64,000 bases of DNA from IMG/VR virus record IMGVR_UViG_3300045125_000127; one strand, 5' to 3'. The stretch comes from a virus. The notes under the pieces are model-generated. The model saw only the letters and a program-made list of their open reading frames with translations. It searched no databases and was not told where the DNA came from. Below are positions 548-43,131 of the stretch, one piece after another (within the stretch, counting starts at the first letter, position 1; the number at the start of each line of letters is the position of its first letter). Both the position numbers and the translations under genes were made by a program.

Positions 548-992
548 ATGCCGAAGCCAGATCACACGCTTTACGGTGACATCGGGCAGTATCTCGGCAT
601 GTACGAGAACATCAAGTTCTTGTCCGACTTCCCCGATGTCAGGTCTGCCACCGTGGACTTCTTCGAGGACGAAGAAGACATGACGCTGGATTACGCCGAG
701 TCGATGCGGGAGCGGGGGCTGAATGCTCTCCGTCAACTTGTTGCGAATCACGTCCCGGCCGACCGGGTCGGCGAGGCTTACGATTACGTTGTGGGGAAGT
801 ACGATGCAGACTGGCGGCGATTTGTCCTCGATAAAGAAGAGGGAATAGTTTCTGATTACGAGAGTTATCTCTGGCGGGGAACCGGGCCGAAGCCGTATTT
901 CATGGGCCTGATCTGAAGAATATCTGAAGCGTAAACCCAAGAAGTACCGCAGTATTGACGACCCCGGAAGCTACATAGAAGACGATGTATAA
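548..992 (+). CDS. hypothetical protein ending in KKYRSIDD tag (frameshift near 915)
   Basis: ORF MPKPDHTLYG...; after one frameshift continues EEYLKRKPKKYRSIDDPGSYIEDDV* (stop 990-992). Confidence 0.65.
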
Positions 993-1082
993 CTACTGCA
1001 ACAGTGCGAAGTGTCTTCCTTTTTGGACGGTCGCTGTTTCGGTCGGACTTCCCGCCATTTTGTTGATTTTTTTGGTTACTTT

Positions 1083-1089
1083 CTAAATA
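1083..1089 (+). promoter_or_regulatory. T4-like late promoter (CTAAATA)
   Basis: CTAAATA 5 nt before the ATG of the MKKFNEW gene; same or similar motif before other MxxFxEW genes (minus 45572-45578, minus 48495-48501, ATAGATA at 29630 and minus 14608). Confidence 0.6.
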
Positions 1090-1094
1090 ACCTC

Positions 1095-1424
1095 ATGAAG
1101 AAGTTCAACGAATGGGTGAAAATCCGTGAAGGTAGCCCCGATCAAACTCTGCGTGGTCCCGTTGAACCGGGCGACCCCAACGATCCGCACTACCAGTGGT
1201 TCCTCAAGATGAAGCAACAAGCCGCTTCATCGCCACTTCAGAAGCCAGTTTCCAAGCCAGTCGATAAACCGGCTTCGCCTATTACGCCGGAAATCGACGC
1301 CAATCCGACCCAAATGTTTAGTGCCGATGATATGATTCAAGCGTATCACTCCGAAACCGATCCCCAAGTCAAGCAGTACATTTTGAGAAAAATCAGACAA
1401 TCTCACCCTGATTTCCGGGGCTAA
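1095..1424 (+). CDS. putative internal head protein (capsid-targeting-like N-terminus)
   Basis: Starts MKKFNEWVKIRE, like T4 internal-protein CTS (MKTYQEFIAE type); late-promoter motif upstream. Confidence 0.55.
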   Translation: MKKFNEWVKIREGSPDQTLRGPVEPGDPNDPHYQWFLKMKQQAASSPLQKPVSKPVDKPASPITPEIDANPTQMFSADDMIQAYHSETDPQVKQYILRKIRQSHPDFRG

Positions 1425-1469
1425 GTTGCTGCTTTACAACCGCTAGAAAGCGTGGTAGAATCTGCTACC

Positions 1470-1958
1470 ATGCCGCAACAACTTTTCATTCCGTCGTTAG
1501 GATCGCTGATCGTCCTCACTGAACCGTGGACTTTCAGCCTGTTTTTCGAGAGCCGCAACAAGACCATGCTTCAGGCTTTGTGCCCGAACAAGCGGCCGGA
1601 AACTGACGAGTGGAAGGACAAGAAGAAGTGGCGTTGGCGTGATTGGGGCGAAGACGCCGAACATCATGAAGGCAGCGAACTTCTCCGGTATCTCGATCCG
1701 ATGGACGAGAAGGAGTTGTTGGACGCCGAATCCAGTTTTCGGGCAACCCGTCGCAACCGACAGCCTTATCTGGAAGTAACTCTTCCGGCCGGACAGCAGT
1801 TGGCTTTCGCTCGGATTTACATTCGACAGGGCGGCACTGCTTTTAACTCGGTTACTTTTCGCACAACCAAAAGTGGTCCCGACAAGCTGTTCCACTCGAA
1901 GCGGTTTTGGGTGAAACTTCAGGACGCCAACAAGATTGTTTGTAACATCCTTGGGTGA
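1470..1958 (+). CDS. hypothetical protein
   Basis: Clean 162-aa ORF. Confidence 0.6.
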   Translation: MPQQLFIPSLGSLIVLTEPWTFSLFFESRNKTMLQALCPNKRPETDEWKDKKKWRWRDWGEDAEHHEGSELLRYLDPMDEKELLDAESSFRATRRNRQPYLEVTLPAGQQLAFARIYIRQGGTAFNSVTFRTTKSGPDKLFHSKRFWVKLQDANKIVCNILG

Positions 1959-1961
1959 AAA

Positions 1962-40219: not shown

Positions 40220-41099
40220 ACGATCTGGCTCTGAAAAATCAACCCGGACCCACAGTTGGTTTATGACTACAACGACTGTCTCACTCGTGGCGTGTGCCTT
40301 CAGTGTAGCAAGAAACTGGAATGGCACTTGGATGTTGGCCCGAACGACGACAGGTTTTGTTACGCCGTGTGCTGTACCACACGGTACTCTATGATCCCAG
40401 ACAAAGTTCGTGTTATTGGCACATTCGCTTATCCACTTTCCCAAAAAGAAATGGACGAAGACGAAGCCGAACTGGTTGACGATGATTTCATCAAACAACT
40501 CCGGGAGTTATGATGTACTTGTACGCCACAAATGTATGGCAACAACCAATTGATGCCCGACGATGAGTCGGATGAAGCGTGGGCAGAGTGGGGAAAAATT
40601 GAGAAAGAATGGGAAGACGCCCTCGAAAAGTACGAGGCCCGGCTGAAAGAAATTGACGACAAACTGCCAGATTCCCGTGAAGAAGTTCATGGAGAAGTGC
40701 CATCTTCACGACGCAACTGTTCCCGACGAAAACTGGAATTTCAACATCGGTTTCACCGGACCTCGCACGCTACAATTGGTCATTCACCAGAAAGATTGGG
40801 GGCCGGAATATTTTGTATTTTGCGGTACAAGATCGCTCATCCGGGCCATGTGACTACATTGCTCGGAGGCATGTTTCCGGCGTCGAACAGAAAGTGCATA
40901 AGGGTCCGGGGTTCGGATCAGCAGTCAAAACTACTGGTTGTATGATGAGTGGGATCATGTTGGCGAGTGTCACGGCACGAACGTTTTCCGTCACTCGTTT
41001 TACATGACGAACGGCGTGGAATTCGACATCCATTTTACGGATTTCAGTTTCGTTTACATTCCTGTCGGAGAAGGCTTGGTCGAAGAATAAGGAAATGAT

Positions 41100-41276
41100 A
41101 TGGAAAACAAGTTTAAGCGGATAACCATACCTCTTGTAAGGCGGATATATCCTTCACTGATCGCCGAAAAAATCGTCTCGGTGCAACGAATGAAGCGGCC
41201 GGACGATGACACACGGAAGAAGATTGTTCGTCCCAAGAGGTATCGCAGTATTGATGATCCGTGGGAGAATGCCTAA
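41100..41276 (+). CDS. major-capsid (gp23-like) fragment minigene 1 with RYRSIDDPW tag
   Basis: In-frame 58 aa: MENKFKRITIPLVRRIYPSLIAEKIVSVQRMK...RPKRYRSIDDPWENA*. Confidence 0.8.
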   Translation: MENKFKRITIPLVRRIYPSLIAEKIVSVQRMKRPDDDTRKKIVRPKRYRSIDDPWENA

Positions 41277-41548
41277 TGGATACCTCCCAAAACCCGTGCA
41301 ACGAAATTCCTCTGAATCCGGGCGGGTTCAACAAGATTTCGATCCCCTTGAGCGCCGCATTTACCCGCAGTTGATCGCCAATAATATCGTATCGGTTCAG
41401 CCGCTACTCGGCCCGACCGGGTTGATTTACTATTTGCGTCATCGGTACTCCCAAACTAAAGGGCAAAGAGGTTCAAGACGAACCCCGCAAGAAAGTCATT
41501 AAGCCGAAGAAGTATCGCAGCATTGACGAGCCGTTCGAGGCTTCTTGA
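41276..41548 (+). CDS. major-capsid (gp23-like) fragment minigene 2 with KYRSIDEPF tag (frameshifted)
   Basis: FNKISIPL(V)RRIYPQLIANNIVSVQPLLGPTGLIYYLRHRYS...KPKKYRSIDEPFEAS*. Confidence 0.75.
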
Positions 41549-42406
41549 GAAGAAAGCAGTTTACAACACCCCGTCCTGCGAAGTAGGATGGGGTGTTGTG
41601 TTTGTGGAGGAAAAAATGAGAGAAGTGAAACAGGCAATCGTCTGGCGTGGCGATCTGAAGGAAATGCCTCTTGGCAAGAAACAGGGTCAGGCTGCGCTGG
41701 CTCTACCTGTTCCTGACAGAGAAGATGAAGCCTGACATCGTGCCGTGTGAAATCGGGCCGGATGATTATCGTGCGTACCCGGAAACGCAAACTGTTAACG
41801 TGGCTATCGACGCCGCAGAAGCGGCATGGATTGTGGGAAACTACAAAAGGCGGTCCTTCTGGCTCGCACGGAAGAGGATATTCAGACCCTTTTCAAGCCG
41901 CACGCAAAGCCGGTTTGCGTGCTTATATTGTCACGGACTTGGGGCACACCGTTTTCAACGGCGAGCCTACGGTAACGATGCATGGCGATTGGTCCCAATT
42001 ACGCCGACGAAATCGACAAGATCACCGGGGCAGAAGGTCCGCTCGGCAAATTGAGGCTCGTGTAACATGGGCGTTAGGCAAAACTTGGCAACTTAATTTT
42101 TTTGAGTCTTACGGCCCGACAAGTTGGTTGCATTGCCTGCAAACAAAGTAATTCCAGAACCAGAAGACAAGTGCGTTTTTCTGGTTAGCGATATGGTCCC
42201 TCGAGAAGGACCGTCGGCCAAACCGACGCACCCTTGTTGTTGGCCTCGTTGCCAGAAAGAGGTCGTTTCCTGACACGAGGCCAATGTCAGGGGTGCGGCG
42301 TTCCGAGGCCGCTTTTTGTTTGTTGAAAATGACTCGGCCACAACAACATGGATAGATGTTGGAGTGCGCAAGAAAAAGATAATGGCAGTCTGCAAGTTGA
42401 TTCCGA

Positions 42407-42622
42407 TTGCTCTTTGCCCTGACTGTCAAGATAAATACGGCCCTCGCAAAAACGGCGGCGGGGTTTGGCATTTCCCGCTTGGCACGATCCGCCCTACCCG
42501 AAAAAGGTACTTTTGACCGAAAGATGACATCGAAATCTTTGAAAAAATGCTGGCGGTTGGCCGGACTGGAGAAGACTCGAACAAAGATGCCAAACTTCCG
42601 CCGAAGCATAGACGACAACTGA
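42407..42622 (+). CDS. hypothetical protein ending FRRSIDDN*
   Basis: Tag variant at C-terminus; 5' end uncertain. Confidence 0.4.
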   Translation: MLFALTVKINTALAKTAAGFGISRLARSALPEKGTFDRKMTSKSLKKCWRLAGLEKTRTKMPNFRRSIDDN

Positions 42623-42670
42623 ATTTCGGTGTAAAATATTGAGGTGTAACTAGAATAGATAGGCGAAACA

Positions 42671-43131
42671 ATGGTTGTGGCACTTCTGATAACGACTTTG
42701 GCGGGCACCCTTATTGCTCTGGGTGTTCAGGTCAGTGTAAACAGACGACTCAGATCGAAAGTGGCAGATATGCACGCTTCCGGTGCCATCCAGTCGAGTT
42801 TGTTGTCAGAAGTGACTGCCAGAGTTCTTGAGTTGGAACGCAAGACCGAGCCGAACGCTTTGACCCTGAACAGGAAAAATTCAAGTCAAAGCTTGAGTCG
42901 CAGTGGAAAAAGGTTGTGGACGACCTTAAACGTGCGCATGACGAACAGTTGGCGACTTACAAAGCCAATTTTGACGCCAAAGTAAAGGCCGAGTACGAAA
43001 AGGCCGTAGAATCTATCGCCTTCCACACGGTAGAATACAAGAAGTCGATCACGAAGGAAGCGTAAAGAAACCAGTCGCAAAACTAAAGCGACTGAAAGCC
43101 AAAGAATACAGGCTCAATTGACGATGAGTAG
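42671..43131 (+). CDS. membrane-anchored coiled-coil protein ending (KY R)SIDDE* (frameshifted)
   Basis: N-terminal TM helix; end reads KPK-aataca-ggc-SIDDE*, consistent with KPKKYRSIDDE after compensating indels; ATAGATA upstream. Confidence 0.55.

Follow-up and report, generated by a model that had tools for sequence, protein, structure and literature searches.

A C-terminal Arg-Ser-Ile-Asp peptide tag on unrelated small proteins in a clade of huge phages

C-terminal recognition peptides shared by several proteins are known as a kind. Encapsulin cargo proteins carry loading peptides of the GSL/LxxLxIGSLK consensus type; in phage T4, gp43, gp33 and gp55 bind gp45 through their C-termini; and the tail of SspB tethers ClpX. 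To our knowledge, the shared docking and sorting peptides of phages serve a handful of proteins, not ~5% of a proteome. Here we analyze a 64,000-nucleotide stretch (hereafter the window) of the IMG/VR virus record IMGVR_UViG_3300045125_000127, in which unrelated proteins end in a common peptide built on the core Arg-Ser-Ile-Asp-Asp/Glu (hereafter the tag). The tag has not been described before, and it is unusual both in its reach (~5% of genes) and in its presence on proteins made from pieces of the same phage's structural proteins. The initial annotation, made from the letters of the window, had read the peptide as a C-terminal tag used throughout the phage for the docking, sorting or modification of unrelated proteins; the results presented below support that reading. 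It had also listed three outcomes that would refute it (a background frequency, loss of the C-terminal bias on polishing, and lack of conservation in relatives), and each of them was contradicted.

Within the window, RSID[DE] occurs nine times in plus-strand frames and never in minus-strand frames, against an average of 0.10 and at most 1 in 40 order-2 Markov shuffles, while [YWF]RSID[DE] occurs seven times against 0.05 expected. A tenth copy (43114-43131) is broken by a one-base insertion, and an eleventh, RTIDS (2460-2474), is a degenerate variant; all eleven sites noted in the initial annotation were recovered where it had placed them. The frequency of the tag is ~90 times background. It is likewise far from background in the related genome G001 (IMG/VR contig 3300049215_000771; 532,729 bp; CheckV 100%), which gave 43 DNA-pattern matches for R-S-I-D-[DE] and 0 with a reversed control.

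The window is a noisy copy of a genuine huge-phage genome. Its longest open reading frames (ORFs) reach at most ~410 codons, and almost all of its genes are frameshifted (e.g., those at 31079-48117). The 58-amino-acid (aa) product of one window ORF has an identical counterpart on the Logan contig SRR9903536_8513 (39,716 bp), which aligns with the window at 96.7-97.9% identity with 135 gap openings over 17 kb and 356 over 32 kb; the indel rate of the window is ~1 per 90-125 bases. Because contigs of three further sequencing runs carry the same clean genes, the fragmentation of window ORFs is assembly noise and not biology, and an ORF-based reading of the window therefore requires the clean copy. 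There the genes are intact, as the initial annotation had anticipated when it called for indel correction. An alternative genetic code was also considered as the cause of the broken ORFs and was rejected, since stop-codon reassignment gives no long ORFs on one strand.

Position and residue frequencies were derived from G001 and the clean contig pooled, with a logo over 43 copies. The C-terminal bias of the tag holds in this polished sequence: in 43 of 48 copies, no more than 13 residues separate the tag from the stop codon, whereas the equivalent zone holds only 8.3% of proteome residues; our own arithmetic gives a binomial probability of ~1e-40. Few copies are internal, and the distance of the C-terminal ones from the stop varies from 0 to 13 residues. 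The core is nearly constant, with Arg, Ile and the first Asp present in 43/43 copies, Ser in 40 (Thr in 3) at the second position and Asp in 39 (Glu in 4) at the last. The aromatic position before it (-1) is occupied by Tyr (27), Trp (10), His (3) or Phe (2), and the ten residues upstream of the tag are 37% Lys plus Arg, compared with 12% in the proteome, with Pro frequent. After the core comes either a stop within two residues (the short form, 17 copies) or Pro-Trp-Glu and a few more residues (the long form). The tag consists of a Lys/Arg/Pro-rich linker of ~5-10 residues, an aromatic residue (Tyr over Trp over His or Phe), the Arg-Ser-Ile-Asp-Asp/Glu core and an optional Pro-Trp-Glu; a tail peptide that represents it is KKKYRSIDDPWE.

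Codon use places the constraint on the peptide. Copies in the window encode Arg by CGC, CGA, AGG and AGA and Ser by AGT, AGC and TCA, and those of G001 use all six Arg codons (CGT, CGC, CGG, CGA, AGA and AGG) and all six Ser codons (TCN and AGY). Selection therefore acts on the peptide, as first proposed, and not on a DNA repeat. TAA, TAG and TGA all occur as the stop after the tag.

Every tag on the clean contig closes an intact gene of 58-182 codons. Among the nine clean-contig carriers (i.e., tagged proteins), RSID[DE] is followed by 0-5 residues in six, by 13 in one and by 24 in one. The carriers of the window are as follows, with endings given up to the stop codon.

C1, 361..992, + strand: frameshifted in the window and upstream of the clean contig; clean form P0037 (209 aa), placed by tblastn of P0037; tag at 939-962, tail KRKPKKYRSIDDPGSYIEDDV; the G001 orthologue (52% identity) ends KKKHRSIDDE.
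C2, 2277..2510, + strand: the weakest of the set, its tag being degenerate (LLRTIDSPWD, 2454-2483); the ending in the G001 orthologue is PRSIDSPPTPEDER, with PRSIDSPP as its last residues.
C3, 5467..5784, + strand: 103 aa in the clean copy, with a small beta-barrel-like N-terminus (by eye); tag YRSIDEGWDD at 5691-5720, with 24 residues after the core; the G001 orthologue ends SSWRSIDDD.
C4, 7383..7683, + strand: 95 aa; tag RKYRSIDD at 7616-7639, then 13 residues; the G001 orthologue ends KKYRSIDDA.
C5, 23395..23942, + strand: 182 aa, without a Pfam or PHROG match; ends KKRLYRSIDD, tag at 23916-23939; the orthologue in the related genome G008 (36.5% identity) ends CLRNLDDDWE.
C6, 38908..39141, + strand: 77 aa, small beta-barrel-like; ends SFKWRSIDDE; the G001 orthologue (57% identity) ends DGWRSIDDE.
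C7, 39089..39349, + strand: up to 86 aa, Cys/His-rich, like the gp32 N-terminus by eye only, no family match; ends KQKKWRSIDDE.
C8, 41100..41276, + strand: 58 aa; part of a major capsid protein of T4 type (phrog_138; Pfam Gp23 at E 2.4e-7 over model positions 3-34), a basic linker, then KRYRSIDDPWENA; tag kept in the homologues P0002 and P0003.
C9, 41276..41548, + strand: 90 aa, with two frameshifts in the window, intact in the clean contig; a second capsid N-terminal fragment (Pfam Gp23, E 6e-11; phrog_138, E 3e-13), then KKYRSIDEPFEAS.
C10, 42067..42622, + strand: 176 aa, Cys-rich, no family match; ends MPNFRRSIDDN.
C11, 42671..43131, + strand: 153 aa, with an N-terminal membrane helix, a coiled coil and a basic tail; ends KEYRSIDDE, the tag being split in the window by a one-base insertion near 43110.

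The clean copy altered some of the earlier residue calls: the Cys read in CRSIDE is Tyr, and the ending given as (KKYR)SIDDE at 43131 was rightly flagged as broken by an indel but wrongly completed, as the KEYRSIDDE ending of C11 makes clear. The carrier at 23395-23942 (C5), earlier taken to be an SSB fragment at 23.9 kb, has no SSB family match; its AlphaFold2 model has a mean predicted local distance difference test (pLDDT) score of 33, and the G001 carrier placed as its syntenic counterpart (24% identity in alignment) reads gp32-like by eye.

As had been claimed, the carriers share nothing besides the tag, with a mean column identity of 9% outside it over 43 aligned carriers. All are small (57-231 aa). 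Of these 43, six match Gp23, while the prohead protease (phrog_207, Peptidase_S77), SSB (phrog_1192) and PrkA_C account for one each; the remaining carriers have no family matches in Pfam or PHROGs. Most lie in small-gene regions, spread over the 532-kb genome and away from the head genes. In the C11 family and in P0018, P0022 and P0035, an N-terminal membrane helix is followed by positive charges, a positive-inside topology that would place the tag in the cytoplasm. The C11 family is widespread with the same ending (P0023, P0025, P0027, P0028, P0030, P0032, P0034, P0036 and P0038-P0040). A G001 protein of 225 aa (36315-36989; L061:16315-16989), ending RRMWRSIDEPWSSQ, resembles by eye the N-terminal region of T4 gp32 plus a zinc finger (IKFRILPPF...CPRR...CPACEY), and may be the carrier that matches phrog_1192.

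The phages that carry the motif are one clade of huge phages with T4-type capsids. The window phage is syntenic with 9-83 kb of G001 at a protein identity of 40-60%, and a back-translated YRSIDDPW[DE] pattern found nine stretches in four IMG/VR contigs and three in two Acidobacteria metagenome-assembled genomes (MAGs). The G001 matches represent 35-39 ORFs ending in the tag; about 5% of the proteome, or one protein in twenty, is tagged in this phage and its relatives. Pattern matches numbered nine in G002 (146 kb), two in G004, one in G003 (35% G+C) and at least two in G007. The tag is conserved in these relatives: window-G001 orthologue pairs with 31-57% overall identity keep the core, as do metagenome homologues from other samples, including those of the capsid-fragment carriers and of the C11 membrane/coiled-coil carrier. 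It is also modular, the G007 orthologue of one G001 carrier ending without it.

A lineage variant bears on how the tag is recognized. The 188-kb contig G008 (IMGVR_UViG_3300044451_000175) has no RSIDD and instead gave five matches to [MIL]-R-[SDN]-L-D-D-[DE]-W-x followed by a stop, a variant (R-x-L-D-D-[DE]-W) with zero pattern matches in G001, G007, G002 and the uncultured huge phage LR756511. One bearer of the variant is the G008 orthologue of carrier C5. Such a concerted switch across unrelated proteins suggests, by co-evolution, a single common reader, and we regard it as the strongest argument for one recognition partner. The Ro60 gene of G008 has all five variant tags clustered around it in a 5-kb region (L132, 7.3-12.5 kb), and an N-terminal fragment of the capsid protein bears one of the five.

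We propose, with a probability of roughly 0.6, that the tag is a short linear docking or recognition motif bound by a single putative reader. This proposal, drawn from comparison of sequences, follows from the few invariant residues, the flexible charged linker, the 0-13 trailing residues, gain and loss on orthologues, and the lineage-wide co-variation; further, a variable distance to the stop with any stop codon fits a binding motif better than a termination signal. One common cytoplasmic reader, encoded by phage or host, would bind the handle on its flexible C-terminal tail, while the variable N-terminal part of each carrier would supply an address or an activity. These N-terminal modules would include capsid and prohead-protease fragments, a gp32-like SSB, membrane anchors, zinc ribbons and small beta-barrels, and the handle would couple all of them to the same machine or place.

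Several observations weigh against this proposal. The search for a reader, described below, found none. The invariant Arg-Ser pair suits a protease or modification site equally well. LR756511 (595 kb), with a capsid protein 81-84% identical to that of G001, yielded zero tags, even with a loosened pattern, and any reader must therefore be dispensable or lineage-specific. Finally, the tag is identical across contigs of 35% to 55% G+C, a span that is hard to reconcile with a host protein as the reader unless that protein is very conserved.

A comparison of gene content did little to reveal the reader, as the list of G001 proteins shared with the window or G002 yet absent from LR756511 is too long to narrow the candidates. 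One lead came from a likeness to integrin ligands that bind a metal-ion-dependent adhesion site (MIDAS). Ligand motifs of this type include Q-I-D-S-P-L in VCAM-1, I-E-T-P-L in ICAM-1 and L-D-T in MAdCAM-1; the general pattern I/L-D/E-x-P-hydrophobic is met by S-I-D-D-P-W, and G008 has L-D-D-[DE]-W. A Ro60 protein is encoded by the window phage, and the D-x-S-x-S MIDAS motif of its vWA domain is intact (D-V-S-G-S). Ro60 also occurs in G001, G007 and G008 and is missing from LR756511. This co-occurrence is imperfect: the tag-free huge phages G009-G011 also have Ro60 homologues, Ro60 was not found in the contigs of the tag-bearing Chloracidobacterium MAG G005, and vWA domains are common in tag-free LR756511. 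For these reasons, Ro60 and the resemblance to MIDAS ligands may serve as a lead only. A complex prediction of Ro60 (10-row alignment) with a 34-residue tail (43-row alignment) and Mg gave a score of 0.03 and a mark of 0.32, which speaks neither for nor against binding. Ro60 residues specific to tag-bearing genomes (e.g., Q475 and R476 near the MIDAS face) are too few, and too confounded by phylogeny, to be informative, and neither a Y RNA nor another Rfam family was detected near the Ro60 gene.

The tag exposes a second oddity, namely conserved small genes built from pieces of the major capsid protein. The intact capsid gene of G001 lies at 338,843-340,276, and seven other small ORFs of this genome hold capsid segments (residues 1-67, 66-119, 265-321, 319-461, 330-383, 413-461 and 449-477) that are 43-87% identical to its own capsid protein; most are tag-terminated. 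Carriers C8 and C9 cover the N-terminal segment (Pfam Gp23 positions 3-48), which we take to be the part of T4 gp23 that contains the Gol peptide. The capsid-protein pieces of the window are nearest to LR756511, which also has capsid-fragment ORFs, all untagged; the fragment genes and the tag are therefore separable features. Viewed as a group, the fragment genes are small and conserved, hold pieces of 25-140 residues from different capsid segments and match the intact gene at identities as high as 87%. Their locations are as follows.

Capsid-fragment genes, window: 41100-41548.
Capsid-fragment genes, G001: 58150, 351369, 453477, 517817, 518216 and 524328.
Capsid-fragment genes, LR756511: L049-L052.

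Among the alternatives to a docking motif, the one that survives best is a processing site or degron, which we consider rather unlikely. Here, a protease or unfoldase would cut the tag (e.g., between Arg and Ser in basic-aromatic-Arg-Ser-Ile-Asp-Asp) or destroy the carriers at a set time of infection. The central, invariant Arg-Ser, with a basic N-terminal and an acidic C-terminal side, is consistent with this idea, as are the small size of most carriers and their position in small-gene regions. T4-type prohead proteases cut after Glu at L/I-x-E sites, which the [IL]-D-[DE] common to both versions of the tag recalls, and in these phages a prohead-protease fragment (Peptidase_S77/phrog_207) and a paralogous segment adjoin the capsid gene. 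However, the residue before such a cut is Asp in 39/43 copies, where T4-type proteases have Glu, and the short form has only 0-2 residues after the core, so that a cut after Asp removes almost nothing. As for degradation, the tag is unlike the known ClpX, Lon and ssrA degrons, and the clpX gene that had been reported in the window was not confirmed: ClpX and ClpP domains were not found in the window ORFs tested.

We also considered a more speculative scheme, which we judge improbable, in which the tag is the constant "effector handle" of a bait-and-handle system, with binders made from fragments of oligomeric proteins and coupled to one effector. The proposed baits are those seen among the carriers, namely six different segments of the capsid protein that the phage itself encodes, one piece each of the prohead protease and of the PrkA C-terminus, and an SSB-type protein; proposed effectors are an unfoldase, a protease, a modifying enzyme or a compartment. 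If true, this would amount to phage-encoded steering of one activity to many chosen targets, with a logic like that of engineered degraders or of the variable and constant regions of antibodies.

Capsid targeting would be a narrower form of docking, in which the tag attaches carriers, as cargo, on the inner face of the HK97-fold capsid or on the scaffold, for packaging and ejection. The arrangement of the tag, C-terminal and behind a flexible linker on unrelated small proteins, suits such a role; several carriers are made of capsid or prohead-protease pieces, and the capsid protein is highly conserved, with 81-84% identity between genomes that otherwise share 40-60% at the protein level. Nevertheless, we hold this to be quite improbable: the C11 family and P0018, P0022 and P0035 are membrane-anchored, carriers do not adjoin the head genes, the tag has no similarity to encapsulin or T4 targeting sequences, and LR756511 combines the same capsid protein and untagged capsid fragments with zero tags.

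Still less credible is a nascent-chain signal acting in the ribosome, through arrest, termination control or recoding. TnaC has W-F-N-I-D followed at a distance by Pro and the stop, and the nascent peptide of T4 gene 60 reads KKY...RRSI. Like such arrest peptides (TnaC, SecM) and the gene 60 bypass peptide, the tag sets aromatic-x-x-Ile-Asp near the end of the ORF with Lys before it; the W12-D16 box of TnaC has the same spacing as its W/Y-x-x-I-D, and a poly-Lys run lies upstream. A conserved ribosome would explain an identical tag over 35-55% G+C, and the phage has a bL12 homologue, an RF-1-like gene, PTH2 and three aminoacyl-tRNA synthetases. Unlike arrest peptides, the tag keeps no fixed distance to a stop or Pro codon (0-13 residues, with a few copies internal), shows no preference among TAA, TAG and TGA, and sits on real proteins, conserved and domain-bearing, rather than on leader peptides. 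A lineage-wide change of the tag is also unexpected with the ribosome as its target. We set the likeness to TnaC and gene 60 aside on three of these grounds, namely spacing, stop-codon use and the switch across a lineage.

Lastly, a DNA or RNA element (repeat, promoter, terminator or mobile cassette) or an artefact of noisy assembly can be dismissed, even though ATTGAC inside the tag is reminiscent of a -35 hexamer, some copies contain AGGAG and the window itself is indel-rich, because the codon diversity (all six Arg and six Ser codons, AGY/TCN switches included) excludes a nucleic-acid element, the reversed pattern and the minus strand gave 0 copies, and the tag closes genes in frame both in clean assemblies of four sequencing runs and in several genomes of IMG/VR.

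The gene content around the carriers is rich in translation functions. Intact genes on the clean contigs include those for leucyl-, glutamyl- and methionyl-tRNA synthetases, PTH2, an RF-1-like protein, a bL12 homologue, Ro60-vWA, an HNH endonuclease and an AAA+ protein. In the window, the translation genes are dense, with the bL12 homologue and a second L12-like gene, LeuRS, a GluRS/GlnRS-type gene, MetRS, PTH2 and the RF-1-like gene, plus Ro60-vWA.

Translation-related set, including Ro60-vWA: ~8.7-11.6, 24.6-27, 33.5-35, 37-38.6, 41.6-42 and 44.3-45.1 kb.
Three tRNA genes (Rfam RF00005, 44-68 bits): 97-167, 3251-3321 and 4097-4167.

The AAA+ gene at ~46.6-47.8 kb is a generic AAA (PF00004) with a faint RuvB_N match; this gene (L003 15523-16695), the only AAA+ seen near tags, has an N-terminal membrane helix. 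A segment of ~4.2 kb (window ~11606-15860), between the Ro60 region and a 1472-aa gene, is absent from the clean Logan contig and may be a strain-specific insertion. When 8 kb of the window was compared with a phage collection by blastn, the sole match was a metG piece of Microcystis phage MaAM05, and a search for related loci with a neighboring ORF of 258 aa found none.

Some observations touch on the host. An Acidobacteriaceae MAG contig, CAVSYW010000005.1 (G006 C5; 933,350 bp), has a G001-like phage end with two tags at 922.9-923.2 kb, and in the Chloracidobacterium MAG (G005) ~13 tags are spread over many contigs. In both of these Acidobacteria MAGs, rpoB sits on different contigs from the phage-like ones. 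G001 is classed as a provirus by IMG/VR, and its proteins also occur on a 673-kb contig. These observations are a lead to an Acidobacteriota host, or may instead reflect a giant prophage or a chimeric assembly.

No name attaches to the tag from Pfam, PHROGs or searches of 1.84 and 5.8 billion proteins, in agreement with the initial annotation, which knew of no named family for the motif. Profile and word searches of these two protein libraries returned only small hypothetical proteins, except for P0046, a 712-aa repeat protein of the 1.84-billion library with eight HRSIDDRW copies (...PPIHRSIDDRWTVDG...), which we took to be an unrelated chance look-alike. The exact strings YRSIDD, WRSIDD, RSIDDPW and SIDDPWE were not found in the literature searched, and a topical literature search gave nothing on capsid-fragment genes or such tags.

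A nine-residue peptide thus marks ~40 small proteins per genome, annotated without function, in a clade of huge phages. It turns a block of "hypothetical" genes into one testable problem, as the identity of the reader would place the whole set in a pathway, and it offers a simple key with which to search metagenomes for this phage group. Should the reader turn out to be a protease, an unfoldase or a receptor for sorting, experiments on these uncultivated systems could use the tag as a portable handle.

Comparison with known systems brings out what is familiar in the tag and what is not. Encapsulin cargo proteins and the HK97 maturation protease, which has a C-terminal signal for targeting to the capsid, likewise bear a short C-terminal peptide that follows a flexible linker and is common to otherwise unrelated proteins. 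Their peptides bind a shell of HK97 fold, which these phages also encode. Unlike those systems, the tag shows no sequence similarity to their peptides, the carrier genes are scattered rather than adjacent to the shell gene, and some encode membrane proteins; a capsid partner would be hypothetical here. The capsid targeting sequence (CTS) of the T4 internal proteins is likewise a sorting peptide shared by unrelated phage proteins, with an Ile-x-acidic element as at the T4 prohead-protease site, but it is N-terminal and is cut after Glu, whereas the tag is C-terminal and has Asp at the corresponding position in 39/43 copies. The acidic end of the tag also sets it apart from the LAA-, RRKKAI- and LRVVK-like degrons or tethers of ClpX, ssrA and SspB.

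The tag also invites comparison with the tails that bind hubs (SSB-Ct DDDIPF, clamp-binding QL[SD]LF and the SspB tether), in which many proteins share one short C-terminal motif. Its logo has no Gln and no Leu-Phe pair, in contrast to the sliding-clamp motif Q-L-[SD]-L-F or the T4-type [ST]-L-D-F-L-F. The long form, D-D/E-P-W/F, loosely recalls the D-I-P-F of SSB-Ct, and in the G001 SSB that reads gp32-like by eye the tag replaces the acidic interaction tail of T4 gp32; unlike SSB-Ct, in which an acidic run closes the protein with Pro-Phe and a free carboxylate, the long form continues for 2-8 residues after Trp or Phe, and in the short form nothing aromatic comes after the core. Finally, scale sets the tag apart: with ~5% of the proteome carrying it, its clients far outnumber those known for such hubs in phages.

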